DNA of 63,281 nucleotides, filler included, from Reclinomonas americana ATCC 50394 (GCA_048213135.1; 46 parts of 46 records of this genome joined end to end with filler, not necessarily neighbours in it); one strand, 5' to 3'; shown: positions 291 to 62,805, counted from the first letter of the whole stretch. The notes: a model not told the origin generated them from the letters alone. Program-made: numbers and translations.

Positions 291-979
291 TCAAATCAAA
301 TTGGTCGGCGCCGGCTCACTGACGGGCTGCAGCACCAGCATGGTTCGCGACGGCAGGTACACCTTGACCGAGGCCGGTCGCTGGTCAAAGTCGCCGGCGG
401 TGGCCGGCAGCAGCTGCGAGGCGTCGACGTGCGCGTAACCCCCAAACGCCGCGGCGTCGCTGGCCAACACGATGCGATGCGTCTCGGCCTTGAGCACACC
501 AATCATGTAGTCCGTGTAGCTGGCCGTGGGGTGGAAGTTGAAGACGAACACCAGCGCTCCGCGCTCAAACACAATGACCTTGTCGCCCTCGTGTTTGCGC
601 GACACGTAGGTCTGTGGAGGAGGCGGAGAGATGAGGGAGATGAGGGAGAGAGCGACCAATGGGGAAGACACACGCAACGTGATGTGAGCTGAGGAACTTG
701 GTTTGCTCCTCCAGGCGCAGCAGGGCACGCTCAAACGTCAACAACATCTTGTACTTGAGGTGCTCCATGCGTGCCAAATCGTACCGACGACGCGCGTAGT
801 GGAAGCTCTCGCCGTTGCCAGCGCGCGGGAAGTCCTGACCACGAGAAGGGAGACGAGTGAGCGAAGAGAGAAGGAGGACACGATGAGCAGCAGCGTCACT
901 CACCAACCACTCCGGGTGACCAAATTCATTGCCCATGAACGTGAGATAGGCCTCCCCACCGAGACCACATGTGATGCCG
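291..979 (-). CDS. GBE1: 1,4-alpha-glucan (glycogen) branching enzyme, C-terminal three exons (introns 835-903, 612-678)
   Basis: Spliced translation [41 protein letters not shown]...[34 protein letters not shown], the GH13 branching-enzyme signature; stop at 291. Confidence 0.95.
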
Positions 980-1289
980 CTGCGCACAAGTAAATCAGTG
1001 GAACGGAAGAATGTAGCGTAGATCTCATCCATCTATCACAGCATCGTGGTTCTTCGATTGGGAAGCTGACTTCTTTACCTCCCATTTCTCTCTCACACAC
1101 ACACTCTCTCGCTCCTTTCCATCAATTTAAAATGTAGTCAATCCGCCGCCACCCAATGCACTAATCTACTCTGCATCGATTCGTCGACTGAGAAGTGCAA
1201 GGTCAGCTGACTTCTCTGCCTTCCTTACCTCCTATCTCTCTCTTTCTCTCACTCTGTATCCCTATCTCCCACTTTCCCTCTCTCTCTCT

Positions 1290-1389
1290 NNNNNNNNNNN
1301 NNNNNNNNNNNNNNNNNNNNNNNNNNNNNNNNNTTAATTAATTAANNNNNNNNNNNNNNNNNNNNNNNNNNNNNNNNNNNNNNNNNNNN
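1290..1389. other. Artificial contig-joining linker N44-TTAATTAATTAA-N44 (first of 45, recurring about every 1.37-1.39 kb; last at 61917-62016)
   Basis: Identical 100-nt spacer with stops in all six frames; gene context changes completely across each linker; contigs are roughly length-sorted. Confidence 0.99.
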
Positions 1390-1417
1390 ACGTCTGTCCA
1401 ACGATTTTCGCGCCAAC

Positions 1418-1940
1418 ATGGCCGACGACGAGGTGCGCTGTCTCTGTGTGTGTGCTTCCTTGCTTGCTTGCTTCTCGTCATCACCGCTTGCACAGACGAG
1501 GAGAGGCGAGCGCGACAGTGGCGATCCTCTGTGTGACGACGATGATGATGATGATGGGGAGGAGCTCGAGGGCGAGTATGATCACGACGAGTTGGAGCAA
1601 GAGGATGAGATCGAGCCGCCACTGGATGAGGAGCACGCGCAGAAGCAGGCAGCGTTTCTGGAGCGCGCTCTGATGGCCAGCGCGGCGTGTGCGTCAACTC
1701 TCTTCCTGTCGCTCGTTCTTCGTTGTCCGCCCTGCTGATCAGCGGAGAGTGTGTGTAGATCGCAGCGCGGCAGAGCGTGATCGACTGTCGCAGCGGCGAC
1801 TGCGTGTGGAGCACACTGACATGGATGAGTTGGTGGAGGAGCACCAGGAGGAGCATTTCCCGCGACGGCGCTTCTCGTATGAGGATTCGACCAGCGGCGT
1901 GGTGTCGGCGGTGGTCAGTGCGGCCGCGCCCGAGGAGTGA
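1418..1940 (+). CDS. Small acidic hypothetical protein, two putative introns
   Basis: ATG 1418, GAG|GTGCGC donor at 1433, acidic exon, TGA 1940; no recognised motif. Confidence 0.5.
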
Positions 1941-1985: not shown

Positions 1986-2679
1986 CTAGTATTCCTCCTC
2001 CTCCTCGTCGTCGTCGTCGGCATCGTCGATGTCTTCCACCAGGCGCAGGGTCTTGTCGTAGAGTTGTTCCTTGAAGTCCTTGACGAGCCACACGCGGTCC
2101 TCGCCAGTCGACTGGATGCCGCTGTCATCGTCTTCTGCAGCCGTTGCTGCCGGTGCTGATGCGCTGCGGGCTCGTGTCGGCGTGGAGGGTGGCGCACTGC
2201 TGTCGGCGTCATCAGCCTTGTCTGCTTCTCCGTCGTCGGTGGCGCGCATGCGGAAGCAGATGGAGAAGACGCGGTCGTGTGGCGATCCCATGCGCCAGAT
2301 GCGATCGAGTGCCTGCCGCTCGACCTGTGCAACGACATCGTGTGAGCCACGTGACTGCGAGCGAGAACTCAGCTTTGCTATTCGCACGTACCGCTGGATT
2401 CCACCACGGCTCGAGGAGAATGACCAGGTTGCCTTGTTGGAGGTTGATGCCACAGCCGCCGGCCTTGAGTGACGCAAGAAACACGTTGACGCTATCGTCG
2501 GTCCTGAAGGCCTCCACGGCCCGTGCGCGCTCCTCGTCGCTGCAGTCGCCGTCCAGACGAACCGCATGCACGCGGTCGCCAAGCTGGCTCAGCTCCGACT
2601 CGCACACGTTGAGCATCTCCTTGAAGCGCGAGAAAATGACAATCTTCTGCGGTCCGTTGCTGGTCACGCGGAGCTCTTT
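1986..2679 (-). CDS. SNF2/RAD5-RAD16-like helicase, C-terminal HELICc domain (intron 2325-2391)
   Basis: KIVIFSRF...RLDG...FLASLKAGGCGINL...LLEPWWNPA|VERQALDRIWRMG (SF2 motifs IV-VI). Confidence 0.9.
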
Positions 2680-4063: not shown

Positions 4064-4223
4064 AGNNNNNNNNNNNNNNNNNNNNNNNNNNNNNNNNNNN
4101 NNNNNNNNNTTAATTAATTAANNNNNNNNNNNNNNNNNNNNNNNNNNNNNNNNNNNNNNNNNNNNCCGCCATCTGCGGGCCCTACCGTCGCGACGGACCG
4201 TGCGTCGAAAGGACTCCGCTGCA

Positions 4224-11102: not shown

Positions 11103-12386
11103 GCAGGTGGAAGCGGAATCGCAGAGAAACTCGGCAAACGTCGCGCGGCACTGGCCACCGGCGGTCGCGGAAGAGGACCCATGGAGCGCGGAGTGTCCGG
11201 CGAGCTACACAGGTAGACGCAAGTGAGCGATGCAGGCGCACTCAAAGAAAATCGAGGGGGACAAAAGAATACGCAACAGTCCTGCCGGTGGAGGAGGCGC
11301 ACGACGTACGTCGACGGCGCCAACACCGGAACCCGAGTCAACCGCCAGCTGCACCTGATGTGGCGACGCCATCGAAAGGCGACGTGACGGTGACAAGACC
11401 GCAGACGGCTGCTGCGGCAGTGCAGGCAGTGGGCCGAGTCGCGGTGGCAGGGCAGTCATCGGTTGCAGCGGCTGCAACTCGCGCAGATTGACGCCGTGAC
11501 GAGTGCCATCGGTGGGTGCGAGCAGCTGTCGCGATCCATCGGTGCCTGTCACCACGCGGATTTCGCGAGTGCTCTTGTCGAGTACACTTCGCGGGCGAGA
11601 ATCCTGCACAAACAAGCAATCAGTCACCGCCGGCCACCAATGTACGAGAATACCCTCCCACAGTCGCCTCACCTCGTGCGTCGGCAGCACTGAATCTGGC
11701 ACTGCGCCTTGGAACATGGGATTGAGGTAAATGTTGGTGCGAATCTGCTGCTGACCAAGCGTGAGGAACGTCTGGTTCTTGCGGGCGCCGACCGCAGTGA
11801 CCACGTCGGCGAACTCGCCATCCTCGCGAATACGAGCACTGGATCGTAACGAAACAAACTGATGAGCACACCGCCATGCACGACAGAGGAGCGACATTTT
11901 GGTACAAGGGGACACACGAACCCCATGACGTCCACCACGGTCTCGCGCGGCTTGGCCGGCGCCGGCTGTCCTTCCACTTGCTCGTCTTCGTCGCGTTTGC
12001 CGCAGCACTTGCGCCAGAACCACAGCCACAGAGGCTTGATGAGTGGGCGCAGGAATTTTCGGAGCTGAATGGAAAAAAACCACGTCAGCGACCGCCACGT
12101 AGAAGAGGAGCAGCTGCAGAAGCAGCAATGACGACGCACCATGAGGAACACAACGACGCCGACCGGGACCGCAACAAAGATGCGAATGAGCACATCGCGC
12201 GTTGTCGCAAATCCAGTAGTTTGTTGCAGCTGTGTTACAAAACAAGAACATGTAAGTCTCCCGTTAAATGTGAGCATAGCAAGTGCTGGTGTGCGGAATA
12301 CGCACCGCCGACGCTTGCAACACGGCCACAATGGAGAGCGAATTCAAACTGATGGACTCGGCCAAGTTCTCCAAGTCTTGCGAGAA
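11103..12386 (-). CDS. Hypothetical membrane protein fragment with Pro-rich tail, multi-exon
   Basis: Hydrophobic segment LIRIFVAVPVGVVVFLM; several GT-AG introns including 11205-11277. Confidence 0.45.
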
Positions 12387-13871: not shown

Positions 13872-14020
13872 ACGAATCGGAAGCTGCATGCACAGTGTGA
13901 GACGCGAAGAAGAAGGGAGGGAGTGAAGTGAGTGAGTGACAGAGAGCTCTTGCAAGACGCAACTCGAGCTTGAATGCGATCAATCAGATCCGACACCAGT
14001 TGCTCCTCGGAAGACATCAT
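13872..14020 (-). CDS. Probable neurofibromin (NF1/Ira-like RasGAP) extreme N-terminus (intron 13884-13963)
   Basis: Spliced MMSSEEQLVSDLIDRIQAR|LPIR resembles the LVxxLxxRIxxRLP start of neurofibromin-family proteins; only 23 aa visible. Confidence 0.45.
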
Positions 14021-19453: not shown

Positions 19454-20462
19454 CAGCCGCAAGCGCCGCGCTCAAATGCGACGCCAACTGCGTCACCAAC
19501 GTCGCCGGCTGCGCGAGCAACGCGGCCAGCAACTCGCACTTGCGGCCAAAGAGGTCGACGGCGGAGGGTGCCGCCGCCGGGTCCTGCAGGAGCGCATCGA
19601 GTGCACTGTGTGTCAACTCCAACAGCAGCCCCTCGAATGATTGCGCGCGCTCCGCGTCCACCGCCAGCGTGCGCCACAACTCCTGCAGCGACGAGAAGCA
19701 CGCGCGAAACACCGGCCACCGCGTCTCCTCCACGCAGAAACGCAGCACGAGAGTGAGCTGCTGGTGACAGACGGCCTCCAGAAAGGCGTGCGTGGCGGCA
19801 CACTTGCGGAAGAGATAGCGCGCGGCGTCGGCCACAGCCGCCACCACCTGCTCCACCACATGCGAGGTGACATTGGAGGACTGGCGGCCTTGCCACAGTG
19901 CAGCAAAGAGAGCGTCCACCAACTCGACGGGGGTCATGCGCGCCGTGTCGTCTTCCATCAGAAGCTGTGGCACGCACAAGTGTGTTAACAGCCATCACTG
20001 CATGAGGGGGGGACAGCCCAACATACCTGCGGTGCCATCAAGTCGAGCCACACCACGGCGTACTTGTACGAAATGCTGCCGCTGCCGTAGCAACCGTGTC
20101 TCAAGAACGAGAGGAACGACGGTGCAAACGATTTGCGCGGATTCACTTGCTCCCAGATGGAGTCGCCGAATGCTGTCGAGGAGACGTCAGCTACGGAAAA
20201 GGAGGGTATGGAATCAGAGGACGCCTGCGCAACTGGACACAAAGTCGGTCAGCGCCGTCCACATCAGTCCGTGAGTCGACGAGTCGGTGTCGTTGAAGAA
20301 GCGCGCGCACGCCTGTGCCATGGGCTTCAAGTTGGGGCGGCAGTACACGTCGGCAGCGTGCCTGGTGAGCGCCGACATGACGCGGTAGACGGCGGAGCGA
20401 ATGATGGAGACTTTGGAGGCGGCCAGCTTCCAAAAGTCGGTGGTGAAGATGTCGCTGTCCAC
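19454..20462 (-). CDS. LTN1: E3 ubiquitin ligase listerin, N-terminal HEAT region, multi-exon (one intron 20173-20233)
   Basis: FWKLAASKVSIIRSAVYRVMSAL...NDTDSSTHGLMWTALTDFVS|TFGDSIWEQVNPRKSFAPSFLSFLRHGCYG matches the listerin N-terminal domain pattern. Confidence 0.75.
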
Positions 20463-22237: not shown

Positions 22238-23448
22238 CTCTGACAAATCAAACAGCTGACGGGCGAGGCGCAAAAACTCCAAAAAGCTCAGGCCACCATT
22301 GCCGTCGGCGTCCATCATCTCAAACACGCTCGTGAACTTGGCGTCGTTGTATTCTGCGCGGCATCGGGTGAGAGAGAAGTCAAAGCGCTCACATCACACG
22401 ACAGTGTGTGCACGCACCAACACCGAGGCCAGTGACAAACTGCTTGCACTCATCCAGCGACAGCTCTCCACTGCCGTCCTTGTCGGCCAGGAGGAACAGA
22501 TTGCCGAGTTCCTTTTCGTGGCGCGGGTGCGAGTGGTAGAGCTGCGCAAAGGGAGAATAAGGAAAAGGGAGGGGAACGGAGGGGAAGGGAAAGGGTAAGA
22601 GAGGGGAAGGGGAGGGGAAGAGAGGGGGGTAAGGGGAAGGGAGGAGAGGGGGTGAGGGGAAACGAGTGGAAACGAGAGAATACGAGTGGAAACGAGAGAA
22701 TACGAGTGGAAACGAGAGAATACGAGTGGAAACGAGAGAATACGAGTGGAAACGAGAGAATACGAGTGGAAACGAGAGAATACGAGTGGAAACGAGAGAA
22801 TACGAGTGGAAACGAGAGAATACGAGTGGAAACGAGAGGAAACGAGTGGAAACGAGAGAATACGAGTGGAGACGAGTGGCAACGAGAGGAAACGAGTGGC
22901 AACGAGAGAAGATGAGAGGAGACGAGAGGAAACGAGTGCAAACGAGAGGAAACGAGAGAATGCGAGTGGAGACGAGTGGAAACGAGAGGAAACGAGAGGA
23001 AACGAGTGGAAACGAGAGGAAACGAGAGGAAACGAGAGAATGCGAGTGGAGACGAGAGAATACGAGTGGAAACGAGAGAATACGAGTGGAAACGAGAGAA
23101 TGCGAGTGGAAACGAGAGCATACGAGTGGAAACGAGAGAATGCGAGTGGAAACGAGAGAATACGAGTGGAGGTCCTGCCGACTCTTTTCCCCTTCTTGTG
23201 CTGAGCCATTCTTTCTCTCCCTAACCCATGGCTACCACTCTGCACCACTCTTCCGTTTCTGTCACGCAACATGGAAAGCATCGGGATTGTTCATCGCCGC
23301 GGCGAGGAACTCCGACCACGAGATCTGCCCGTTACCGTCGCGGTCGATGCGTGTCATAAACTCTTGGAACACGGTCGCCGGCATCTCCTGTCCCTGATAG
23401 TCAAAGTACACGCGGCGGACCTCCTCCGGACTGATGATGCCGTTGCGG
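22238..23448 (-). CDS. Multi-EF-hand calcium-binding protein fragment (long intron 22542-23270)
   Basis: EF-hand loops RNGIISPEE, DRDGNGQISWSE, DKDGSGELSLDE, DADGNGGLSFLE. Confidence 0.9.
22658..23170. repeat. Intronic minisatellite: 20-bp unit AACGAGAGAATACGAGTGGA made of two related 10-mers
   Basis: About 510 bp in strict 10-nt register; homogeneous first part, shuffled variants in the middle. Confidence 0.97.
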
Positions 23449-23582: not shown

Positions 23583-23868
23583 AAGCGGGGGAATACTGGA
23601 TGCATGAACAGTAAGGACACGAGGAGGCCGGAAGACAGAAGAAAGATCAGTGAGAGAGGAGGGAGTAGTAGAGAGTGCAGTCACACAAAACGGCGGCGAG
23701 CCAGAGAATGAAAGAGAGAGAGAGAGAGGAGGGAGGGAGCAAGAGCGAGAGCGAGGAATACGACGATGCACTTTCACGGGAACAAACTGGAAGAAAAAGG
23801 ACAAAACAGAAGGAAGGAAATGACATGCAAAGAGACATCGTGGACCCCTTCCATCACCACGACGCAAC

Positions 23869-24599
23869 TGTCGGTCACATGAATGCTCAAGGACGTTGAC
23901 TGGGCCGACGAATCCGTGACAGTGATCAGCACATCAAAGGAGCCACTCGCGCCGGCCATCAGGAACGACAGTGTGGCCTGGCGTGACATAGCCGATGGAG
24001 TCAACCCGACGTATACGGCAGGCGAGCTGGCCATCCACATCCACGAATCGTACAAATCGCTGTTGGCGTCGGTGACCTCCACGGTGGCGAGAAAGCCGCC
24101 GGAAGTCGACGGCGCATGGTATGTCGGGTTCAACGGAGTCATCACAATGCCCGTGGGAGCAACAGGATCTGCACGACAAGCGGCGTCAATATCCACCACT
24201 AACACATGAGTGCGTGCATGGCCACGAAACTTTCGACGAAATTAATCGTAATCGCACTCGCCACGCGCATCGTGTCGTCAATGGCATCAAACATGCACAT
24301 CTGCGGTCCGCTCGTGAAGCTACCGATACTGACGGTGGCCGTTGCAGAGACGGGTGCGGGCGATAGACCTGGTGGCGTCACCACCAGCGTGTGATACTGT
24401 TGGCTGGTCAGCGGAGCCTCGAAAGTGTTGAACGTGGACGTGCTGATGATGCAAGGTCCGGAAACCCGTCGCAGAACCAGCGAGGTCGTCGAAACGTTGT
24501 CGTCGTACACGGTCAGTGTGCCCAGAGTCTGTGACGAAGAAAGGCCAGGGGTGTAGCTCTGAGTGCCGTTGTACGCCAAGTCTCGGGGGTTTGCTGGGA
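23869..24599 (-). CDS. Extracellular beta-sandwich (cadherin/Ig-like) protein fragment
   Basis: S/T/V-rich beta pattern with LTVYDDN, VEVTDANSD and VLITVTDS. Confidence 0.45.
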
Positions 24600-25062: not shown

Positions 25063-26206
25063 CCTTTTTCATGCGTTTGTGCTGTCGCAAAAAGTTAAAC
25101 AGGAATCCCAAGTGATCACGCAGCACAGGTCGCAAGTGGAAGCTCGTCACGTGGCCGCAGTACTGCACCAAGTTCTGCGCAGCACACAATGTTGGACACA
25201 CAAACTCGCCAGATGCGGAGATACGGACACATCGACTCACGGCAAATATCTTCAGCCGATAATCAAAGCCACCCAACACCACCGAGCACAGCTTGGGGAA
25301 GCGCGATTCCACCAGGCCCGTCACCACCTCGTGCGTGAACGGACGGTTGCGGTCGACATTTTCAAACCACACACCCTCCAGATTCGCATTTGCACATCTG
25401 CAGCACAACAAAAACCAAGGGGTCATGCATCTCCCACATGCGCAAGGATGCAGTGTCACGCACGCACCTGTCTTGCAACAGCACATTGTCGGTCAGCAGC
25501 GGGCACTTGCGCATGGAGAGACTCCGAATGGATTTGCAGTTCTCGAGCAAGCACGCCACCGACTCGTCAGTGATGTGCAGGCAGTCGTCCAGGTACACGT
25601 TGACGAGATGCGCCAGACGAGCGGCGGAGGTGATGAAGGCGTAGTCGGTGATGCTCGGCTGCTGACATGACAAAAACGGCTGCTCGCCAGGGACGCACGG
25701 CCGCACTTGAATTACCTGGGCGGCGAGATGGTGAGTGAGAAAATACAGGGTGGTGATGGGGTGGTGCGAATGGCGTTACCGTGTGGTGCTCGGAGACCGC
25801 CTGCAGCGTCTTGAGATCCTGGCAGCGCGACCACAGGTTGTGCAGACAGACATCGCTGGCGACGCATCGAATGAGACTGAGGGCGGTCAGCGAGCGGAAG
25901 CGCGTGGAGATCTGGTCCAGGTGCGTGGGGTGAATCTCTTGCAGCAGTCTGCGAGTGCACACGTCAGCAACATGCGTGCGGGGGTGAGCACGTGAGCATG
26001 TGTGTGTGTGCACGGAACTGCACGGCAATTGATTTTAGCTTCGGGCTGTTGTTGATCATGCGGAAGATATCATTCATGGACGTGGTCTGCGGGAAATTCG
26101 GCCGTGGTGCGCCTTGCGGTGGGGCTGCGGGGTCTAGTTGTTCAAAGTAAAAGTCCTCCAGTGCAGGCAAGTCCATGGTCATCACCAGTGCACGGGAAGA
26201 CCCTGC
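25063..26206 (-). CDS. Cysteine-containing LRR (FBXL/AMN1-like) protein fragment, multi-exon
   Basis: VYLDDCLHITDESVACLLENCKSIRSLSMRKCPLLTD fits the LRR-CC consensus. Confidence 0.8.
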
Positions 26207-30740: not shown

Positions 30741-31352
30741 ATGACCCTGTCACGCGCATTCGCTTCCGATCCGTTCGAGGACTTCAATCGCATGCTGACG
30801 AGCCCATTCTTCACCGGCGCCGGCGGCGTCGGCTCCTCCATGTGGCCGTCGACCGTCGGTACCACCACCGGAACCACCATGTGGTACCCGCGGTGCGACC
30901 TGTTCGAGACGGAAGACTCGCTGAACATTGTGGCCGAGGTGCCGGGTGTGCCCAAGGTTTCGCTAGCCATCGATTCGCAGCGATATTCCTCCCACCAGCT
31001 GCTCGTCTCACCATCTCCTTCATCGGCCGTTGCAGGAAAACGTCAAGCTGGAGATCGACAAGGACGTGCTGACGCTCAGCGGTCAGCACCAGCAAGAGAA
31101 GCGCGACGATTCACAGACTGTTGCGTCAGCAAGTGGAATGCAGACACACATAGAGGACAGTTTCTAACACGAGAGTGACAGTGGCATCGCGTGGAGCGCC
31201 AGTACGGATCGTTTGTGCGCTCGTTCCGCCTGCCCGACTATGCGGACCAGAATGCGATCCAGGCCAACTTTGAGAACGGCGTGCTCAACGTGCGCATTCC
31301 GAAGAAGGACAAGGAGGAATCGCGCACAGCGCGCAAGATCAACGTCACTTGA
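30741..31352 (+). CDS. Small heat-shock protein (Hsp20/alpha-crystallin), complete; introns 30957-31035 and 31120-31181
   Basis: PRCDLFETEDSLNIVAEVPGVPK|ENVKLEIDKDVLTLSG...|WHRVERQYGSFVRSFRLPD...ANFENGVLNVRIPK. Confidence 0.95.
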
Positions 31353-34957: not shown

Positions 34958-35474
34958 ATGAGCGACCTGCAAAACCTGCTGTGCGACAATCTGCTAAAGC
35001 GCGGTGGCGTGTTTGGCAACACATGGCAGGAGCGACACTTTGTGCTCGACGTCTCCAACGCTCTGCTCTTGTACTACAAGAAGGAAGTTGCGTGCTTTTC
35101 TCCCTCCACATGTTCTCTTCTCCTTTTCCTCACGCTTCTTCCGCCGGCGACGCCAGAGTGACCCACGTGACGGCACCAGTCCAAAAGGCGCCATCCCACT
35201 ACACCACGCGGTTCTCGAGGAGCACGGAGAGGCGGTGGGCGGCGCGGCGGTGCAATACCGCGGTCGCAACATTTACCCGTTCGTGCTGAAACCGACGCTG
35301 CCGGGCTCCAGCCGCCAACGCTACGAAATGGCCTGCTTCTCACCACACACGCGAAATGTGTGGATGCGAGTGATACAACGCTGCTCCTCCAACGGCCCGC
35401 GATCGAATTCCGGCACTACTACTACGACCACCCCGACAGCGGCCGCAAGGAGAGCCACCTCGCCGCCCAAGTGA
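34958..35474 (+). CDS. Small PH-domain protein (intron 35087-35156)
   Basis: LLKRGGVFGNTWQERHFVL...LLYYKKE|SDP...PKGAIPL...YEMAC...RNVWMRVIQ. Confidence 0.9.
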
Positions 35475-35956: not shown

Positions 35957-37232
35957 TGCGACGACCACCCTCGGCAGCATCGATGGGCGTCAGCGCAGTC
36001 ACAACACCGGCGCCGGTATCCGCCATGCCGCGCGCCAACCGCGTCACCGAAATCGCGATGCGACTTCCGGAATCGGTGTTTGAGTTGCTGACGCTGATGA
36101 AGACGGCAAGGGATCCGCAGCGACCCAAGAGTGCTCTCACCAGCAGTGAGCTAGCGCGTGCGCTTCTGCACGGTCCCGGCATTGGCAGGCTATGCGAAGC
36201 CATCACCATGCCCCTGTCGACTTTCCGCTCGCCCTGCTGTCTGGCGGCGGCCTACTTTCTCGATATGCCGCGTGGTATGTGTTTCACCCTGGCGTGCATT
36301 GTGCTTGCCTACCTGTTTCGTCGACTCATTCCGTGCATTGGCAGCATCGGCGTCGGTTCGCATGGCGGACGGAATGATGGCTCCCGAATTCGGGCTGCTA
36401 GAGTCCATTGCCGACATGTTGGACAACTCTGAGGACCGTGAGATGCAGTACGACGCCACACTATTGCTGGAGAAACTCTCGGACGTGGGATCGTGCCGTT
36501 GCGTATGAGTTTTTTTGGCGGTATTTTTTCTTGTGCGTTTTTTGGTGTCTCTAACCCCGGCGGCCTGCAGATCTGGAGCCAACGCTCTCGACCGTCTCCA
36601 CGCACGTGATTCCGGGCCTCGCCAAAATCCTCACCTCGCAGACTGACCCTCGACTGCTAGCGCAGTCACTCAATGTTGTCCGCAACCTTGTACGGAACGG
36701 TGCGCACAAAAAAGACACCCTACTGTGTTCGGTTTTCATCGGTTTTCTCTGACAAATTTGGTGAAACGCAGCTCCCATGTGCTTCACCACACGACGGGAG
36801 ACACGCATGGGACAGGCGTTGCTCGCTTGCATGCGACGATCGACTGCCATTGACATTCGCACGCGAGCGGCGGCGTGTGTGTTGCACATGCTGACGTGCC
36901 CGGAGCACGAGGCCTTTGCCTACATGTTCCGCGAGCACGACCCGCTCGCCGATGTCCGCGCGCTGATGCTCGAGCTCGATGTGGCTGCCGACAATGCCCT
37001 TGCTGCCTCCAACACCACTGAAGCGCACAACAATGCCCGCGTGTATCTTGCCGCGTGCCTGGTCGAGGCGTTGCATTTGTGTTGCGTGACTTGCGCTTCT
37101 TTCTCTCATTTTCGCACACCGACGTCTCACATGCACTTGTGGCAATACGTTACCAGACTGCCAGCAACTGCCACAGTTGGAGCAGTACAAGCTGGTGGAG
37201 CTGTCTTGGCGAATCACCATGCAAGCGGTGGC
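35957..37232 (+). CDS. Armadillo-repeat (importin-alpha-like) protein fragment, multi-exon
   Basis: GLLESIADMLDNSEDREMQYDATLLLEKLS and VIPGLAKILTSQTDPRLLAQSLNVVRNL are ARM-like repeats. Confidence 0.65.
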
Positions 37233-45835: not shown

Positions 45836-46757
45836 CTGCAAGCTGTCCACCATAAAGTCCCCCATAAACGCCGACCACGTTGACGCGCCGACAAACGCCA
45901 TGACCAGCCACAGCTGCCGCAAACAAAACGTCAGCCGCGGCTTTCGACAACAACCCACACCAACGCAACTCCAACATAGCGCGGCGGCGTCGGCGTCTTC
46001 GTGGTGAACAGAATGATCAATCCGCCGACCGCACCCACAATCAGCGCCAGAGCCCACATGGGAAGTGCGCCGATGGAGGTGTGATAGCCTAGGTTAATGA
46101 AGAGTGAGTCTCAATGTTGATGCACGAGGTTAAGGTAAGGGCAACATACCAATAAATGTGAGGACCACGAGCGAAAACAGGCCCTGCATTCACCAATGAG
46201 TAAAACACTGTCAACCTTCTCCTCAAAAGGGGACCAACCATCGGCGACACCACCGCATACAAGCGATTCCAGGTCCCCGGTGCCGGCCCCATGGTGAACG
46301 ACCACAGGGCGTGCACGGGGAAGCAGAGAATCGACCACACCGTGTCGCAGCGCTTCGGTTTGCGTCGCACACTGCTGCCGCGCTGCGAGTCTTTCAGGCT
46401 GGTCACTGCGCGCACACACACGAATAAGCAACATGCCGCCGCCTTCTGCTGACAAGATGACAACCAACCGGCCAGCGATCCGGTCTTGGTCGAGCGCGTC
46501 GATTTGGAGGAGGTGTATGCTGGCGCAACGTAGTGGCGACTGATGGGTGGCGGCATGGGCTCGCCGAGGGGGCGCGGGGCAGCGCGTGGGGGGAGCAGGG
46601 GTGGGGAGTCGGAGTGGTCGACGGGTGACTCGCCGTCGTCGAACACGTCCATGTCGTCGCCAAAGTCACCGCCGCCGGTGGTGGAGAAGCGGAGGCCAGT
46701 GGCGTCGTTGTCGCTCTCCAGGTCCTCGGTGATGATGCCGACCTTGCCGAGGAACAC
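45836..46757 (-). CDS. Cation/Ca2+ exchanger of the CCX/NCLX (SLC8B1-like) group, internal fragment
   Basis: FPVHALWSFT...WNRLYAVVSP; LPMWALALIVGAVGGLIILFTTKTPTPPR; MAFVGASTWSAFMGDFMVDSLQ. Confidence 0.65.
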
Positions 46758-51095: not shown

Positions 51096-52347
51096 TTGGC
51101 CTCGATGAGACGGTTGCGCATGATGGTGCAGACGGCCTTCTGGTCGGCCACCTCCAGCTCCATAATGTCGAACTTCTTGTGCGCGTCAATAACCTTGGAA
51201 AAGAGGGCGGAGCACGCCTCCTCCAACGTCTTGCACCGACGAGCCTTGTCCAGCACACTGTTCGACATATTTTTAGTGCGTCACAAAAAATGTCATGGCC
51301 ACCACGTTGTCGTCAACACCGCAACTCTCGTCGCAGCGAAGCGGAATCCATGCGAGCAATCGTGCTCTCAATCTCCGCAATGTTGTCTTGCAGGCGCACC
51401 ATCTGCATGAGCATGAAATGCGGTTTAGTCGGCACCGAGAAGAGGAAGACACGACGAGCAAGACGATTCGGCACACCTTGTTCTGGATATTGACTGCATC
51501 ACGGCGGCGCGTTTTCATCGAGTCGCGCTCCTTGGTCAGCACCTTCATGGTCTGCTGCATGCCGCCAATTTGCGCCTGCACCTGCCGCGCTTGCTCCTCG
51601 AGCTCGTCCATCACTGCGCGTTTCTCGCTGGCCACACTTGCACAGCGCGCCACCAGCTCTCGATCGACACCGGCCTTGAGGAGCGACGCTGGTCGGATGT
51701 TGGTGGAGCGCACCGACAACCTGCGCGACAAATTTAGGCTCACGCGTGTGTGTGCGACTTGGGGGCGCAAGCGTGGAGACGCAACTCATGCGAGTACTTG
51801 GACCGCTTGGCCAGGTGTTGATACTTGTCGCTGATCACACAGGTGCCGCGCGTCTCCGCAAAGAGCCGCTCCACATTGGTGTTCTTCGCACCAATCAGCA
51901 CAGTGTCGACGTGGCACGCATCAATCATGTACTGCTTGACAGTCTCCGGTGCGTTGAAGCGCTCCGACAGCAGGTACTGAATGCCGTACTGGCGGTACTG
52001 TGAAGGCAGTGACAAATGAGAAAGCAATGCACAGAAACACTTTTTCTCGCCACAATCAAACCTGCGATGCTGGTGTGGGCGCAGGGGCACGAAGCTCGGG
52101 ATCACGATCGACCACCGTGACGGTGTCGATTCCTTCTGCGCGAATATAACCGAAAACCTTTTCACGATCGGCACGGGTGCACACCACCGACTGCACGTCA
52201 TCGGCGAGTGAGCGTGTCACACAGCAGCAAGCGTGGACGAAGGAGGCAGTCAGCGACGCAACAAAAAGGTCCCTGCGCGGGCAATGCGATTCGAGAATTG
52301 CGGCTGCTTCGTCATCAACAGGCTCCAGCTCGGCCGCCACAATAAAC
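51096..52347 (-). CDS. SMC5: Structural maintenance of chromosomes protein 5, hinge and coiled-coil fragment, multi-exon
   Basis: AAILESHCPRRDLF|SVVC...YGIQYLLSERFNAPETVKQYM...KRSKYSHE|LSVRSTNIRPASLL, then coiled coil. Confidence 0.75.
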
Positions 52348-52769: not shown

Positions 52770-53107
52770 TGCACCGCCAGCACCGGCGAATGTGCTGTCA
52801 GAGATCTTGCCCAAAGCAGGCCTGGTGTACAGCAAGGTGCGTGGCGAGTGCGTGTGTGGTGTATGTGACGGCTATGTGACGCGGTTTGCTGTGCTGGCGC
52901 AGAAATCCAACTTGTCGGAGGTGTTGTGCAAGCCAAAGATCATGCCGTGCGTTCTTTTTGTTGTCTTCCGTGACCTGTCTGTCTCTCACTGTGCTCAACG
53001 CTGCATCGACGACCGGCAGGCTGAAGAGTATGACGTTGGAGAAGTTGGAGGAGCTGGAACGGCAGGCGCAAGCATTGCGAATGCAGCAGGATGATGGCGC
53101 GTATTGA
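52770..53107 (+). CDS. BBIP1: BBSome-interacting protein 1 (BBIP10/BBS18); start not resolved
   Basis: Spliced EILPKAGLVYSK|KSNLSEVLCKPKIMP|LKSMTLEKLEELERQAQ. Confidence 0.9.
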
Positions 53108-55184: not shown

Positions 55185-56286
55185 GCCGGAGATCACACCA
55201 GTCACAGTTGTTGAACCGCTGACCCCGAGGTTGCCGCCAATTGTGGCAGCGCCGGTAATACCGAGAGAGGCCATGGTCGTCGCTCCAGCAATCTGCAGCG
55301 TCCCCGCAATAGTGACACTAGAGCCGAAACTAGTAGCGCCGCTGACGTCAAGAGTGGACGTTGCGTTGACGGGGCCGTTAAGGGTCGTGTTTGTGATGAC
55401 CTTGAATTGTTGAAGCATCGTCAGGTTCCCTTGCATCGTTACATCGCCCAACAGGATCACATGCTGAAACGAGTTGTCCGGATTGATTGTTAGAGTGGTA
55501 TTCGCAGCGTCGCGTGACATGGCCGAGTACGTGCGTCCGCCGAGGAAAAACGTTCTGCCCTCCACGGACAGGGTTCCAGACATGTCGACGTCGGTCGTTA
55601 ACCTCGAAGCTCCACTCGGCGGCACAAAGATCTTGTTCACGCCGTCCACTACAAGCTGTAGTGAATTCGACGAGTCGACTGCGAGTGAAAAAAGGCGATG
55701 GCAGGAACGTAAGGCGCAGAAGCAATGACACGATGTCAAACCCAATACAACTGCACGCAACGGTACATGCCAGTGGACGTCTTATTTTGGAACGAGAATC
55801 CACCCGCGCCAGCCACCGTCCCTGTCGCAGCTAATATGGCACCAGCGACGTCGAGTTTGGCCCCAGGTGACGCATGACCCACGGCCACCATTCCACTGGA
55901 AGCCACAACCAGCCGGTCCAAACCAATCACAACACCGTCACGATAGTCTTCCTCATAATTAATGTACAACTTGGACCGACTGGTGTAGCTGGTGCGGGGG
56001 GTGGCCGAGAAGCGTGTTGCCCTCCCTTCCGAGGTAGAAGCGGCAGACTGTTCAACTCCGTTGGTAAATAGCCTTCGGCGAACGCTGCCACCACGCAGCA
56101 TTTCACCACTAGAGGCGCGAGTGGCGCCGTCTGAGTTGCCGGGGAACAGAGACGACATCTTTGCCAGGTCTCTCTTCGACAAGTCCGCCTCGTCTCCGTC
56201 CTCTACAGACTGGGTGCTGACGTACCGGCTGACGACTTGCATTGCTCGCAGCAATCCATACCGACCTGAATAGCCAGCAGCGTCAC
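55185..56286 (-). CDS. Intron-containing protein with phage tail-fibre-type motifs (intron 55679-55761), open at the 3' end
   Basis: LYINYEEDYRDGVVI; SGMVAVGHASPGAKLDVAG; FSFQNKTSTGMY|LDSSNSLQLVVDG; LTINPDNSF; then LxVxG/GxxTx beta-repeats. Confidence 0.7.
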
Positions 56287-56552: not shown

Positions 56553-56630
<78 letters not shown>

Positions 56631-59167: not shown

Positions 59168-60658
59168 GTGCGTGTGTGTGTGTGNNNNNNNNNNNNNNNN
59201 NNNNNNNNNNNNNNNNNNNNNNNNNNNNTTAATTAATTAANNNNNNNNNNNNNNNNNNNNNNNNNNNNNNNNNNNNNNNNNNNNGGCACGGCGCTCAATC
59301 TGCTCAAGCTGCAATGTGTGGAAACCCTCAACGATCTCATGCTGCAACGCGAGTCGGGCATTGTGGTGGAGCTGGCGGCGACGTGCTTGCATTACATGTG
59401 GTGAGTGATGGAGAAGGAGAGGGGTGAGGAGAGAGAAGAGCGGGACGCCCGGAAGAAAGGCAAATGTGGCAGCGAGCGAGTGAGCCTGCTTACACATGCG
59501 GTGATGTTACAACACTTTCTCTCTGTCTTTCACTTTCATTCTGTCTTTCTGTCCTTCATGCTTGCAGCATGTACATTGACTGCATTCCAATCATTGTTCC
59601 TCGCACGCTTTCGTCTCTCTCCGCCACGTGCATGAAAGAATTAGTCAGAGAACACGACCAGGTCGAATCCGAATTGAGTGAATGTGACGACGAACACCTT
59701 TATTCTCTCTCTCTCTCTCTCTCCCAATATCTTTTATGCTTGCCGATGTGTGCATCGGCAAGTGATTTCTGCTGCATTGCGCATTTCCGGCTTGCTTCTG
59801 TCTCTTCCGCAGAGTGTTGTCAAATGTGTACATGATTGCAGCCACTGGCTGTAAGAATGATAGAATGAGAGAGTGATCAATTCGCGGCCAATCCTTTGCT
59901 CTCTTGCTCCACCACCTTCATGCTTGACAATTGCATTATTTGTGATACAAGTAGCGTGTTTCTGGCGATTCTCTCTCTCCACCAACTTTGACTGGAACTG
60001 AGAACAGAAGCCTGCGTCAAGAAAGTATGAGTGAGGGACGAGATGCTACGACCCAATGTTCTCTCTGCCTCCTTCTTGCATGTTGCGATCTTTTCACTGA
60101 GTGTTACTGTGTGACTCTGCTACTGTATGTCCTGTATACGACTGCGGCTCGACTCCCTTCTCTTTCTCTTTGTGTGTCTCCTTCTCATGTATATGAACAG
60201 CTTCCCAAGTATTTGCGATACAGAAGCGTGTTTCTGGAACTCTTCTGTGTCTCTCTGCGCAGTGTAGGGGTTTTCCAAATCAACGAGAGATAAATGAATA
60301 AGCTTGTGAGTGAGTACGTGAGCGAATAAGTGTTACTACTCTATCTCTCTCTTTCTTGGTTGCAGTGTAGAATGTGCACATTGATACAAGCGTGTATCTT
60401 GTTTGAGTATACGGCCAGTTTAATGACAAATTGACAGGATGCATCTGTGTGCCTCTGTCAGTCTATTTCCCCTTGAAGAACTCTGCTTTGGGGCAGTCAG
60501 CGTGAATCATGAAGTGAGTATGTGCATGCTGACTCACCTTCCCCCTTCCCNNNNNNNNNNNNNNNNNNNNNNNNNNNNNNNNNNNNNNNNNNNNTTAATT
60601 AATTAANNNNNNNNNNNNNNNNNNNNNNNNNNNNNNNNNNNNNNNNNNNNCTCGGGTC

Positions 60659-61081
60659 ATGGCTCTTCCGAGCGGCCCGACAGCCCCCTCCTCCACCGCC
60701 GAGGCGGTGCTCTTCGAGCTGGTCGACGATTACGACCGCGCCTACGAGTCCGCTGCGGAACAGCTCTCGCTCACCGCCGCACAGGCCTGCGTGCTCGGCC
60801 GGTTGCACGAGCGCCGAGGGATGGGCTCGCTGGCCGAGGAACTCGGATGCGATGCCTCCAACATCACGCAGCTCGTGTCCCGACTCGAGGCAGTCGGGCT
60901 CGTGACACGCGAGCCAGATCCGTCCGACCGCCGAGCTCGTCTCGTCAAGCGCACGAGACGCGGTCACGCGGTCAACAGGCGGTTCGAGGAGGCGTTCGCC
61001 TTCGGGCGCACCGCCGTGAGCCGCTTGACGGATGCGGAGCAGCAGCAGCTCACCTTCCTCCTGAAGAAGGCCCTCGGGTGA
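60659..61081 (+). CDS. Bacterial MarR-family transcriptional regulator
   Basis: LTAAQACVL...MGSLAEELGCDASNITQLVSRLEAVGLVTREPDPSDRRAR. Confidence 0.93.
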   Translation: MALPSGPTAPSSTAEAVLFELVDDYDRAYESAAEQLSLTAAQACVLGRLHERRGMGSLAEELGCDASNITQLVSRLEAVGLVTREPDPSDRRARLVKRTRRGHAVNRRFEEAFAFGRTAVSRLTDAEQQQLTFLLKKALG

Positions 61082-61767
61082 GCGGGTCGCCGCACCGGCT
61101 GCCACCAGGGCAGCGTGCCGTCGTCGGATTTCCCCGGTTCGGCATCGACCTGCACGCGCCCCCACCGGTGACGGCATCCGAGATCTCCATCGTCGTCGGC
61201 GGCGACGTGGCCGAGGCGCTCGTCATCTCCGACGCTCTCCTGGGATCCTTGCCCCGCACGGCGGTCGACGCCGACCTCCACTGCGTCGCCGGCTGGTCGG
61301 CGACGGACCTGAGGTGGGAGGGGTGGCGCTTCGACGACGTACTGAACCGGCTCATCCTGCCTCAGACGCCCGAGGGCGAACGCATCGCCTTCCTCGTGTT
61401 CATCGGAGCGGACGGCTACCGCTCGATCGTGACCCGGGAGGATGCTGTCCGCGCGAACGTGCTCCTCGCCGACCGGCTCGACGGCGAACCGCTCACGCCG
61501 GAGCACGGCGCGCCGATCCGGCTGGTGAGCCCCGACCAGTACGGCTACATCAACACGAAGCACCTGACGCGCATCGAGCTGCATGTCGAGCAACCCGAGC
61601 CGATCTTCCATCCGCGACGCAGCGTGCAGCGCGCGCTCCGCGCAGTGCATCCGCACGACCGGGCTCGCGTCTGGCAGGAGGAGCGGCACCGGTATCTCCC
61701 CTCATGGCTCACGCGGCCGCTGTACCGGCTCGTCGTGCGGCTGCCTGCTCCGCGAGCCGATCACTAG
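61078..61767 (+). CDS. Bacterial molybdopterin-dependent oxidoreductase (sulfite oxidase/MsrP-like Mo-binding domain)
   Basis: GTG start overlapping the MarR TGA; LPPGQR, DLHCVAGWS, WEG, DGY, LDGEPL..EHGAPIRLVSP..YGY...KHL..IEL. Confidence 0.9.
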   Translation: MSGSPHRLPPGQRAVVGFPRFGIDLHAPPPVTASEISIVVGGDVAEALVISDALLGSLPRTAVDADLHCVAGWSATDLRWEGWRFDDVLNRLILPQTPEGERIAFLVFIGADGYRSIVTREDAVRANVLLADRLDGEPLTPEHGAPIRLVSPDQYGYINTKHLTRIELHVEQPEPIFHPRRSVQRALRAVHPHDRARVWQEERHRYLPSWLTRPLYRLVVRLPAPRADH

Positions 61768-62016
61768 GGGGCGGCGATCATGGCGATCGCGGACGGGAAG
61801 CGACCCGGGGAGGGGCTGCGGAAGTCCGGACTCAGATCGTGTCGTCGGCTGCGATCAGATCGATCTGCCAGAACCGGCCGTCCGGATCCTTCTCGTCGTG
61901 CGCCTCGTCCGCGGCGNNNNNNNNNNNNNNNNNNNNNNNNNNNNNNNNNNNNNNNNNNNNTTAATTAATTAANNNNNNNNNNNNNNNNNNNNNNNNNNNN
62001 NNNNNNNNNNNNNNNN

Positions 62017-62805
62017 CCGGAGCACCACATTGCCGGCGCGCCAGTGAAAGAACGCAGCTGACACGGTCGTCGGCACCATCTGCACCCGCACGAGCACACT
62101 CAGTTGGGGGAGGAGGGAAGCAAGTTTTGTAGGGAAAAAGGAATGACGCAACAGCCAGCAACGATGTGGCGACGGCGGCCTGCTGCGGCTGCTCATGCGC
62201 GCGCAACGCCGTGTAGGCCACCGACAGCGCCGGGGTCACCACAAGACCTCCGCCAATGCCCAACATGGCCGACGCAACACCGGCCACCACTCCCAGCGCG
62301 ACCGACAGCGCCACAGGCAGTCGCGGAGGACCAAACCACGGCGGCGTGGAGGTGGAAAGAGGAGGAGGAGGAGATGATGATGCTGGTGGTGGTGCGAGAA
62401 GCCGCGGTGCCCAGGTGAGTGGAATGGTGGCCAGCAGGAAGCAACCGAGCAGGGTGCCAGCCAGTCGCCCACCACTGGTGGAGGCCGGCAACCAGCGCAT
62501 GCCCAGTGGCACCGACAGCGCAGCACACACTCCAATCGTCGCCGCCGTGCTCACATCCACCACTGCCGAGCCCGGCGACGACAATGCAAAGAAGGACGCC
62601 GCTCCAGCCACGCTGCGCAAACACAATCAGCATGTTGCACCGTCCACCTTCGACAACGACTTTGTCTTACCAAGTGCCCATCACCGCCGTCACCGTCGTT
62701 CCCACCGCCTGCAATCGCACACGCTGTGCACTACTCTCCGCAGCGATCGACGACAGCACACGATGCAACAGCGGCACCGCCACAATGCCTCCACCGACGC
62801 CCTTC
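62017..62805 (-). CDS. TauE/SafE (TSUP) family membrane transporter, eukaryotic, multi-exon (intron 62080-62152)
   Basis: GVGGGIVAVPLL; GVVAGVASAMLGIGGGLVVTPAL...AVATSLLA|MVPTT...HWRAGNV. Confidence 0.85.

Follow-up and report, generated by a model that had tools for sequence, protein, structure and literature searches.

Few features of eukaryotic gene expression are as conserved as the 5' end of U1 and the GTRAGT-like donor, and non-canonical U1 registers are known to us only as rare exceptions. Roca and Krainer are said to have described in 2009 human 5' splice sites that are read in a shifted (+1) register, and Roca et al. reportedly described in 2012 sites read in a bulge +2/+3 register. 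U12-type introns have a rigid intron-side donor of about 7 nt with little exon consensus, and coexist with a looser major class. In human, validated non-canonical registers of all types account for 1.5% of sites, and the bulge +2/+3 register for 68 predicted sites, 54 after curation, of 201,541 (PMC4856993; bulge counts from its Table 3); the excerpted text of that paper reports no organism in which the bulge register is a major class. In the diplonemid Sulcionema specki, a pair of U1 genes is described whose ends for pairing with the 5' splice site are unlike each other, a proposed match to unusual donors; GTTG or GUUG has 0 occurrences in the text, and GTTG-type donors go unmentioned in it (PMC12621601).

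Here we describe a class of predicted donors with the start GTTGCG(T). As in the human shifted register, GU is followed by U and then by the species' normal +2 to +6 consensus, the +1 G can fill the -1 slot of U1, and the cut falls at the true GU; as in the bulge +2/+3 register, the extra nucleotide after GU can be read as looped out, with the downstream bases back in register. Human shifted sites are rare, however, whereas the GTTGCG class makes up about a quarter of introns, and the human sites (GTTAAGT-type) form a long unbroken helix after a single mismatch, where those here have a +4 C mismatch and a predicted duplex weaker than that of a random GT site. The class resembles the U12-type in being rigid, intron-sided, and accompanied by a looser ordinary class, but it is unrelated to RTATCCTT, lacks a rigid branch box, and has 3' halves indistinguishable from those of ordinary introns. 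S. specki offers a protist precedent in that its U1 copies diverge at the 5' end, although its variant end, as excerpted, is a run of C and its donors are degenerate or G-rich (PMC12621601).

The window, that is, the whole stretch of DNA analysed (63,281 nucleotides, filler included), consists of 46 unlinked contigs of 1265-1290 bp each, with N44-TTAATTAATTAA-N44 spacers between them; 4 are bacterial and 42 eukaryote-like. The first-pass annotation had treated 612-62152 as one span, and this did not hold, the sites being spread over separate joined contigs. Of its gene names, GBE1, Hsp20, PH, EF-hand, TauE, and SMC5 were borne out, and LTN1, its name for the HEAT-like gene at 20233, was not. 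The spread of GTTGCG(T) donors across unrelated genes and all three phases was confirmed. H/GTTGCG (a slash separates exon from intron) is present on the proposed strand at all 13 of the positions that it had called strong and at both weak ones, with GTTGCGT at 12 of the 13.

Both strands of the window together contain 52 GTTGCG and 25 GTTGCGT, the latter against 10.7 expected from an order-3 Markov model and 15.2 from a maximal-order model. Sites were scored for coding sequence upstream, and beyond a YAG at a distance of 45-130 nt, against read-through, ignoring the donor sequence and using a codon table trained without the contig under test; a score T>=4 was a pass. Among all GT sites 195/6732 passed, compared with 12 of the 48 scored GTTGCG sites (p=7e-9) and 10/24 for GTTGCGT (p=5e-10); the other 4 of the 52 GTTGCG sites fall outside this count, one lying on a bacterial contig and three too close to a contig end. 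No hexamer was linked more strongly than GTTGCG to donor-like contexts. A second test ran a donor-blind, GT..AG-only dynamic-programming gene finder over the 42 eukaryote-like contigs; of the 34 introns that it predicted, 8 begin with GTTGCG, where 0.24 were expected (binomial p=1e-10), in a list that is noisy (two false introns were called on the 4 bacterial contigs) and contains two duplicated pairs. The GTTGCG site at 4544, on a bacterial contig, also passes the site score.

Eleven of the 13 proposed donors were supported (678, 20233, 23270, 31120, 35087, 36498, 37081, 51785, 52262, 55761, and 62152); 11277 and 13963 are outside the supported set because their coding signal is weak and contig ends are near. 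The weaker candidate 23868 is plausible; the other, 29109, lies only 42 nt from a contig end. Two GTTGCG donors, 45969(-) and 51325(-), were added. The 25 GTTGCGT sites comprise 11 supported donors, 1 plausible donor, 9 sites without support, and 4 that are neither; one of the unsupported sites, 62278, is on the sense strand inside a Pfam-covered TauE exon and is unused as a donor. The introns, with the two claimed ones last, are as follows.

612..678, minus strand: GBE1 intron, CAC/GTTGCGT...CACAG, 67 nt, phase 0
20173..20233, minus strand: intron of a HEAT-like gene, CCA/GTTGCGC...GACAG, 61 nt, phase 1, score 8.0, found by the blind finder
22542..23270, minus strand: probable long EF-hand intron, CAT/GTTGCGT...GCGCAG, 729 nt, found by the blind finder
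23787..23868, minus strand: plausible intron after an Ig-like domain exon, ACA/GTTGCGT...TTCCAG, 82 nt, phase 1
31120..31181, plus strand: Hsp20 intron 2, ACT/GTTGCGT...GACAG, 62 nt, phase 0
35087..35156, plus strand: PH-domain intron, GAA/GTTGCGT...GCCAG, 70 nt, phase 0, score 11.9
36498..36570, plus strand: intron of a helical-repeat gene, GCC/GTTGCGT...TGCAG, 73 nt, phase 1, score 5.5
37081..37156, plus strand: second intron listed for that helical-repeat gene, TGT/GTTGCGT, 76 nt, phase 1, score 4.5, found by the blind finder
45914..45969, minus strand: added intron of a membrane-protein-like gene, GGA/GTTGCGT...GGCAG, 56 nt, phase 0, score 8.5
51258..51325, minus strand: added, less sure intron on the SMC5 contig, AGA/GTTGCGG...AACAG, 68 nt, phase 2, score 6.2
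51721..51785, minus strand: SMC5 intron, TGA/GTTGCGT...GCGCAG, 65 nt, phase 2, score 15.1
52191..52262, minus strand: intron on the SMC5 contig, TTT/GTTGCGT...GTGCAG, 72 nt, score 3.3, under the cut
55679..55761, minus strand: intron of a tail-fibre-like repeat protein, ACC/GTTGCGT...CGCAG, 83 nt, phase 1, score 9.8
62080..62152, minus strand: TauE intron, GCT/GTTGCGT...GTGCAG, 73 nt, phase 0, found by the blind finder
11205..11277, minus strand: claimed donor ACT/GTTGCGT, score 1.6, low-complexity upstream, contig ending about 100 nt past the acceptor
13884..13963, minus strand: claimed donor CGA/GTTGCGT, an 80-nt pyrimidine-rich stretch leading to GCAG, score 0.5, 12 nt of contig left

Four junctions (GBE1 678, Hsp20 31120, PH 35087, and SMC5 51785) are fixed by homology, with the frame restored and the homology continuous. 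The GBE1 junction was the top frame-keeping GT/GC..AG pair against 25 homologues (361.6; runners-up 350.8 and 350.4), and the flanking HSPs join within 3 query residues in 9/10 homologues. Pfam HSP20 positions 20-46 occupy the exon before 31120 and positions 47-102 the exon after it (E=6.6e-16); Pfam PH positions 5-36 stop at the last exon residue before 35087, and positions 41-104 lie in the next exon. The exon before 51785 aligns with residues 557-627 of SMC5 chain 9lwi_I (E=4e-4), and a relative's unspliced ORF P0242 implies GTTY(C/A)G at the matching position. Pfam TauE positions 48-172 of 237 stop one residue before donor 62152, the downstream exon being just 21 codons, up to the contig end.

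The remaining junctions vary in their evidence. Pfam EF-hand matches lie in both exons adjoining the 23270 intron, where read-through meets a stop after 2 codons, so that the protein could end there instead; a 20-nt minisatellite occupies 22662-23170 of this intron. The upstream frame at 23868 is open for 124 codons and the 3' end is pyrimidine-rich, the downstream exon being without support. Donor 36498 is the sole GT among 5 frame-keeping candidates for its CTGCAG acceptor; the acceptor of 37081 may be 37156, 37164, or 37176, since the contig ends 76 nt on. For 45969 the blind finder settled on an in-frame GT 6 nt further upstream, and a motif-aware round took 45969 itself; at 51325 the gene finder preferred the in-frame alternative G/GTGTTG at 51319. 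A search for homology support at 52262, where frames are compatible in phase 0 or 2, found none. The acceptor for 55761 is the first frame-compatible one; the frame stays open for 164 codons after it, and both exons have weak PHROG tail-fibre matches. The 20233 intron has an alternative 43-nt acceptor at 20191. Together, the donor-blind statistics and the four homology junctions show GTTGCG(T) to be a genuine and abundant class of predicted 5' splice sites. It is a major class, about a quarter of the blind-predicted introns.

The 14 GTTGCG introns in the list all conform to GT-AG and end in CAG. They are short (56-83 nt, beside the probable 729-nt intron), with a median of 71 nt against 67 nt for ordinary introns, and their bodies are pyrimidine-rich (66% C+T). 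A YTNAY branch-like motif is present in 11/14, its A 7-55 nt, mostly 14-27 nt, from the 3' end; it is found in 13/15 ordinary introns, 11-24 nt from the 3' end. The 3' halves of the two classes look alike. Apart from the donor, the predicted GTTGCG introns are ordinary, their ends, frame, and branch motif being those of U2-type GT-AG introns. The donor motif is rigid, with GCG at +4 to +6 in 14/14 and T at +7 in 12/14. A sister class, GTT[T/C]CG, was also seen (GTTTCGT and GTTCCGT), and a donor G/GTTCGT was predicted at 11921. The +4 base in the listed GTT-type donors is G, then T, then C in order of frequency, and never A; the +3 base of ordinary donors is G or A. Sister-class and ordinary examples are listed below.

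24169..24230, minus strand: sister-class intron, AAA/GTTTCGT, 62 nt, phase 1, score 14.7, found by the blind finder
25949..26018, minus strand: sister-class intron of an LRR gene, GCA/GTTCCGT, 70 nt, score 9.4, found by the blind finder
30957..31035, plus strand: Hsp20 intron 1, AAG/GTTTCGC, 79 nt, found by the blind finder, the next exon opening at HSP20 position 20
835..903, minus strand: ordinary donor in GBE1, TTG/GTGAGT, 69 nt, GBE1 HSPs spanning the intron
2325..2391, minus strand: ordinary donor in an SNF2 helicase, GCG/GTACGT, 67 nt, the best junction against 30 homologues (238.0; unspliced 205.5)
52837..52902, plus strand: ordinary donor in BBIP10, AAG/GTGCGT, 66 nt, the Pfam BBIP10 halves in different frames
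52947..53019, plus strand: ordinary donor after a non-G base in BBIP10, GCC/GTGCGT, 73 nt

The first-pass annotation had proposed that G is missing from the last exon position before GTTGCG, and the blind set agrees: 0/8 GTTGCG donors have a -1 G, against 15/26 other predicted donors (Fisher p=0.0045). Against the background frequency of G before GT (0.205), 0/13 is marginal (0.795^13 = 0.05). Ordinary donors in the curated list have a -1 G in 15/17 and are variable at +3 to +6.

Pairing with U1 was modelled with RNAduplex as the best duplex in any register, bulges permitted. The canonical U1 5' end gave a mean of -0.9 kcal/mol (range +0.5 to -2.5) at 13 GTTGCG donors and -6.1 at 17 ordinary donors, on hand-curated lists made with the motif partly in view and with an energy model that leaves out pseudouridine, U1C/Luc7-type proteins, and exon-side factors. 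The mean over all 6941 GT sites in the window was -2.5 kcal/mol (sd 2.1); the GTTGCG donors pair more weakly than 79% of them. No bulged helix was returned by RNAduplex at any of the 13 GTTGCG sites, nor a bulge gaining at least 1 kcal/mol. By hand count the +1-shifted register offers 5 pairs and the normal register 3, but the best duplex still averages -0.9 kcal/mol, the shifted helix being broken by the internal +4 C mismatch. A U1 5' end complementary to the motif gave -11.3, matched by 0.2% of GT sites. A U1 with GC for UU gave -7.1 on GTTGCG, in the shifted register, and -9.2 on ordinary donors; it would discriminate poorly, the class mean being reached by 23% of GT sites. We infer that the reader of GTTGCG would be something other than the standard U1 5' end in standard pairing.

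The most likely reader, put forward tentatively and at somewhat short of even chances, may be a U1 whose 5' end has been altered, given the poor pairing predicted between canonical U1 and the rigid motif. Such a U1 could take two forms: a second variant complementary to GUUGCGU, beside a canonical U1 serving G/GTNNGT, or a single U1 with GC replacing the two pseudouridines, which would pair in register with G/GUGCGU and with a shift of one base at /GUUGCGU. Cleavage would be set at the first GU of GUUGCGU. The base preceding the motif would occupy the -2 slot, which may be why no G is preferred there. Against a changed U1 counts the near invariance known for the U1 5' end across eukaryotes, species with GTGCGT donors included. 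No snRNA genes (U1, U6, or others) were seen in a search of the window. That two major-spliceosome systems run in parallel, canonical U1 for G/GTNNGT and a second U1-like snRNA, its 5' end complementary to GUUGCGU, for a co-dominant class without need of an exon-side G, is a rather doubtful proposition; if true, the U2-type and U12-type codes would be joined by a third for 5' splice sites.

A possible, if somewhat unlikely, alternative is that canonical U1 reads GUUGCGU shifted by +1, with the intron G in the -1 slot, or with a U bulged, helped by U1 proteins, and that U6 then acts at the real GU. This had been the original proposal, and part of it stands: replacing the +1 G of G/GTGCGT by T and moving the cut one base upstream gives H/GTTGCGT, so that the motif is an ordinary donor with one base changed or inserted. 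GTTTCGT, GTTCCGT, and G/GTTCGT (11921) obey the same rule, the shifted register has 5 pairs to 3, and a shifted slot predicts that G is not preferred at -1 (0/8 against 15/26). Human cells are proven to use such registers, at 1.5% of sites (PMC4856993); here the class is about a quarter. The part without support is the strength of the duplex, predicted at -0.9 against -2.5 kcal/mol and weaker than at a random GT site, the +4 C mismatch splitting the helix. A canonical reader should moreover favour GTAAGT or GTGAGT without a -1 G, so that a rigid GTTGCGT is unexpected, and the +4 preference for G, T, and C (no A) is unlike that of the ordinary +3 (G or A). Plain shifted or bulged reading by the standard U1 is therefore weak on the modelled energies, and an altered or second U1 appears at least as likely.

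Under either mechanism, a rigid GUUGCGU start in about a quarter of introns would be informative: either shifted or bulged recognition carries a whole intron class, or U1 has been re-coded or duplicated. Both outcomes would provide a natural system for how the cleavage site is fixed after U1 binding, and annotation of this organism by gene finders trained on standard donors would go wrong for many genes.

Recognition independent of U1 seems improbable. On this view GUUGCGU would suffice by itself as a donor signal, either through a protein that binds it or through reading chiefly at the U6/U5/Prp8 stage, with ordinary donors using the -1 G and U1. The very poor complementarity to canonical U1 and the rigid motif without exon-side consensus are consistent with this, as is the CGU triplet, which is kept but displaced by one base and could pair with the ACA of the U6 box ACAGAGA. 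We know of no such system for GT-AG introns, however; the one-base displacement would also have to be absorbed at the U6 step, and the unused sense-strand GTTGCGT within the TauE exon argues that the heptamer alone is insufficient.

It is very improbable that the junctions are misplaced, the true donors being nearby GT or GC dinucleotides (GC three bases in, GT five in) and the heptamer enriched for other reasons or by chance. The junctions do come from sequence analysis, every site has an in-frame alternative, GTT/GCGT always keeping the frame, and the methods err: the 4 bacterial contigs yielded 2 false introns with the blind finder, a bacterial GTTGCG site passes the score, and GTTGCGT at 6212 lies within an intron that G/GTGTGT at 6229 explains better. 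Against this, the enrichment in donor-like contexts (p around 1e-9) was obtained with left-out training, the GBE1 alternatives insert 1 or 3 residues relative to 25 homologues, conservation spans exactly G1-T7 in all three phases, which suits an intron start and not a codon, and GCGTNN would serve very poorly as a GC donor.

A special intron family, whether mobile introner copies or a diverged minor-spliceosome (U12-type) class, is scarcely credible: the rigid 5' motif without exon consensus recalls U12-type donors, but an ATCC-type donor and a rigid TCCTTAAC-type branch box are both absent, and the bodies of the 13 introns share a mean longest common substring of 6.2 within the window, against 5.8 when shuffled. 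Assignment to the U12-type, with its donor RTATCCTT and the branch box TCCTTAAC near the 3' end, was rejected, as was assignment to introners, which should share sequence along their length, for the 13 intron bodies in the window. The YTNAY motifs of the GTTGCG introns are the same as those of the ordinary introns.

The window is made up of 46 contigs of 1265-1290 bp each, ordered by falling size and separated by spacers of the form N44-TTAATTAATTAA-N44 (e.g. 1290-1389), with a G+C content of ∼0.58 once spacers are removed. It is not one stretch of a chromosome, and coordinates that span spacers have no genomic meaning. Because the contigs are unlinked, the span 612-62152, over which the first-pass annotation had reported introns beginning GTTGCG(T), is a sample of unlinked genes, and the recurrence of the motif in unrelated genes is strengthened accordingly. 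Four of the contigs have a G+C content of 0.66-0.70 and carry long intron-free genes of bacterial type:

4166-5454, Exo_endo_phos gene
16641-17924, alpha/beta hydrolase gene
46957-48229, bacterial solute-binding protein gene (SBP_bac_1)
60651-61916, MarR gene and adjoining molybdopterin oxidoreductase gene

These four probably entered the assembly from bacteria, either contaminants or associates. The other 42 look like the DNA of a single GC-rich eukaryote that has short introns and numerous (TC)n and (TG)n microsatellites; their closest protein relatives reach 59% identity for GBE1 and at most 52% for an SNF2 helicase. Two contigs, 20787-22067 and 26307-27587, are near-identical end to end in six-frame ORF translations and may represent two alleles, a recently duplicated segment, or redundancy in the assembly; they give duplicated predicted introns (21821/27341 and 21079/26599).

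GTTGCG occurs 52 times in the window and GTTGCGT 25 times, against 10.7 occurrences of the heptamer expected from an order-3 Markov model. On the eukaryote-like contigs, the base following GTTGCG is T in 25 cases, G in 12, C in 10, and A in 4. All 13 strong and two weak donors of the first-pass annotation read H|GTTGCG on the strand reported (H, not G; the bar marks the exon end), and the heptamer GTTGCGT is present at 12 of the strong ones, as had been claimed.

Donor status was judged by three lines of evidence blind to the donor sequence: a site score, a gene finder, and homology. For every GT, coding log-odds were computed for the open frame leading up to the site and for a downstream frame opened by a YAG 45-130 nt away; the site score was the smaller of the two minus the log-odds of reading through. 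Homology-backed exons served to train the codon tables, with the contig under test left out. At a cut of 4 (score ≥4), 195 of 6732 GT sites on the eukaryote-like contigs passed, including 12 of 48 GTTGCG sites (p=7e-9) and 10 of 24 GTTGCGT sites (p=5e-10). Other motifs passed at 4/16 (GTTTCG, p=9e-4), 6/73 (GTGCGT, p=0.02), 2/19 (GTACGT), and 3/66 (GTGAGT) sites; GTTGCA passed at 4/42. Training without the leave-out step again gave 12/48 for GTTGCG. The noise of the score is visible on the bacterial contigs, where 31 of 541 GT sites passed, the sole bacterial GTTGCG (4544) among them.

The gene finder used dynamic programming, with only GT..AG, codon log-odds, a length prior, and a YAG bonus as inputs. 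On the 42 eukaryote-like contigs it placed 34 introns, 8 of which begin GTTGCG, compared with 0.24 expected (binomial p=1e-10); with the full codon table, 10 of 37-38 predicted introns did so. It also made two false intron calls on the four bacterial contigs, so a good share of the introns predicted at other motifs may be false or a few bases off. The recurrence reported for the motif is real and stronger than had been proposed, and introns beginning GTTGCG, at about one-quarter of the donor-blind predictions, form a major class. Two other procedures were dropped: a donor test based on ORF length only, which 44% of all GT sites passed in this GC-rich DNA, and a first, self-trained gene finder, whose heavy intron penalty left almost no introns.

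Homology places individual predicted junctions at the motif. In GBE1, the intron 678..612 scored highest (361.6) of all frame-keeping GT/GC..AG pairs when compared with 25 homologues; the runners-up, at 350.8 and 350.4, leave one or three extra residues, and in 9 of 10 homologues the tblastn matches on either side of the intron come to within three query residues of each other. At donor 31120, the upstream exon covers Pfam HSP20 positions 20-46 and the downstream exon positions 47-102; at 35087, PH domain profile positions 5-36 reach the last exon residue and positions 41-104 follow the intron. A TauE Pfam match (48-172 of 237) stops one residue short of donor 62152. The SMC5 exon ending at 51785 matches residues 557-627 of chain 9lwi_I (E=4e-4), and the exons flanking this hinge exon gave no significant PDB match. 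Ordinary donors served as controls: 2391 G|GTACGT in the SNF2 helicase gave the best junction against 30 homologues (238.0, versus 205.5 unspliced), and BBIP10 is split by AAG|GTGCGT and GCC|GTGCGT. By our tally, 7 of ∼14 homology-anchored introns examined carry the class motif.

Eleven of the 13 strong donors are supported, with 11277 and 13963 staying candidates; of the weak pair, 23868 is plausible and 29109 stays a candidate. We add a predicted GTTGCG donor at 45969 and, less surely, one at 51325. A sister class missing from the first-pass list is predicted at A|GTTTCGT 24230, A|GTTCCGT 26018, and G|GTTTCGC 30957 (the first Hsp20 intron), with C|GTTTCGT 45053 perhaps a further member. Donor support is lacking at nine GTTGCGT sites. 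The one at 62278 lies on the sense strand within the TauE exon, so the heptamer is not enough by itself to impose splicing. The high-scoring GTTGCGT at 6212, which follows a G, is better read as the interior of a G|GTGTGT intron from 6229. The label LTN1, given earlier to one of the genes, found no Pfam or PDB support.

A further view of one junction comes from P0242, a public ORF call of 258 residues from an unnamed sequencing run (Logan contig of 928 bp). A search of 1.8 billion protein representatives with the SMC5 exon gave five matches, of which P0242 alone was informative; it is 46% identical over the exon and aligns to 51755-52000 (minus strand). P0242 is an unspliced read-through of SMC5, with common intron positions on both sides of the hinge exon: homology begins at a Q that corresponds to the acceptor CAG in the window's SMC5 contig and ends where the exon ends. 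The residues that follow, E, F, and R, can be encoded only by GA|GTTY(C/A)G. Judged from this protein, it is very likely that SMC5 of the distant relative is interrupted at this position too, by an intron that starts GTT[T/C]CG. A metagenome scan with P0242 turned up no relative.

The last exon base had been described as never G at GTTGCG donors. In the donor-blind set, which includes two duplicated pairs contributed by near-identical contigs, G stands at -1 in none of 8 GTTGCG donors and in 15 of 26 others (p=0.0045); in curated lists, partly picked with the motifs in view, the counts are 0/13 for the class and 15/17 for ordinary donors. Against the background, in which 20.5% of GTs are preceded by G, 0/13 is of marginal significance (0.05). 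What can safely be said is that GTTGCG donors do not share the marked preference for -1 G seen at other donors; a ban on G would be a stronger claim. Ordinary donors can also follow a base other than G, as had been noted (52947 C|GTGCGT and 1689 T|GTGCGT).

The formal likeness proposed for the motif is correct: replacing the second base of G|GTGCGT, a G, by T and placing the cut one base further upstream yields GTTGCGT, and so, equivalently, does the insertion of one T into GTGCGT. Pairing was computed against the canonical U1 5' end, with its sequence taken from PMC4856993 and with bulges and loops allowed. The mean best predicted duplex was -6.1 kcal/mol for 17 ordinary donors and -2.5 kcal/mol (sd 2.1) for all 6941 GT sites, compared with -0.9 kcal/mol for the 13 GTTGCG donors, a value that 79% of GT sites equal or better. 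The predicted duplex is weak because the C at +5 (+4 in the shifted register) lies opposite a pseudouridine, so that the helix is broken into pieces of two and three pairs; human shifted sites, by contrast, form a long helix.

No single U1 5' end suits both kinds of donor well, and as the possible reader of the class we therefore give a slight edge to an altered or second U1 over canonical U1 in a shifted or bulged register. A hypothetical U1 end complementary to the motif would pair with the class at -11.3 kcal/mol (reached by 0.2% of GT sites) and with ordinary donors no better than background; one with GC for UU at positions 5-6 would give -9.2 kcal/mol for ordinary donors and -7.1 kcal/mol for the class in the shifted register, with poor discrimination. 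A precedent is the diplonemid protist Sulcionema specki, for which two U1 genes with unlike pairing ends have been described (PMC12621601). Canonical U1 acting in a shifted or bulged register, the mechanism first suggested, has the formal likeness on its side, but it would have to act through the weaker predicted duplex; donors without -1 G should then favour GTAAGT or GTGAGT, so a rigid GTTGCGT is unexpected, and the variable base of the class runs G > T > C, with A not seen among the listed donors, versus G/A at +3 of ordinary donors. Of the earlier interpretation, the major class and the relation to the -1 base stand, and its simplest mechanism is energetically unconvincing on the predicted values. 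A search of the window with Rfam gave no family at gathering score, and no snRNA even among the 28 matches at E≤1, nearly all of them to microRNA models on four repeat-rich stretches. Those at 45593-45837 and 56384-56624, the latter crossing an N spacer, reach up to 69 bits and are probably microsatellite artefacts.

Beyond their first seven bases, the class introns resemble ordinary ones. Median lengths are 71 nt for the class and 67 nt for ordinary introns, and all 14 listed class introns end in CAG. The A of a YTNAY lies 7-55 nt from the 3' end, mostly 14-27 nt (none in 3/14), compared with 11-24 nt in ordinary introns (none in 2/15). With a C+T content of 66%, the bodies of the class introns are no more alike in sequence than their shuffled versions, so within this window they are not copies of a mobile introner; unlike U12-type introns, they have neither a U12-type donor nor a rigid branch box.

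According to Table 3 and the Discussion of PMC4856993, validated noncanonical U1 registers account for 1.5% of 201,541 human donors and the bulge +2/+3 register for 54-68 sites; the class described here makes up about one-quarter of donor-blind predicted introns. Among the matches listed in our literature searches, covering titles and abstracts and part of the diplonemid paper, no GTT-type donor class is reported, although the organism's genome paper may do so; a full-text search for GTTGCG/GUUGCG(U/T) listed no match on splicing by title or abstract.

Several further features were seen. The ORF 7293-8228 (plus strand, 312 codons) has a Pfam coproporphyrinogen-oxidase match (E=7e-13) and found no relative at E≤1e-3 in a word-indexed protein search, so that it is either very divergent or its Pfam match is partly spurious. 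The contig 40089-41364 is open throughout on both strands, with 455 codons each; it consists of tandem units of 66, 132, and 150 nt that encode a Gly/Ser/Thr/Val-rich repeat, and either strand could be the coding one. A minisatellite at 22662-23170 (20-nt unit, 25.5 copies, 89% matches) lies within a proposed 729-nt intron of the EF-hand gene. The minus-strand gene at 55185-56450 has one intron, and its product is a repeat protein whose two exons each match PHROG tail fibres weakly, but in different families, so that a phage-tail-fibre-like protein is found in a eukaryotic gene context. In an LRR gene, tandem in-frame donors 12 nt apart, GCT|GTTGCAAG and CAG|GTGCGTG (25467-25479, minus strand), are present, and either may be the one used.
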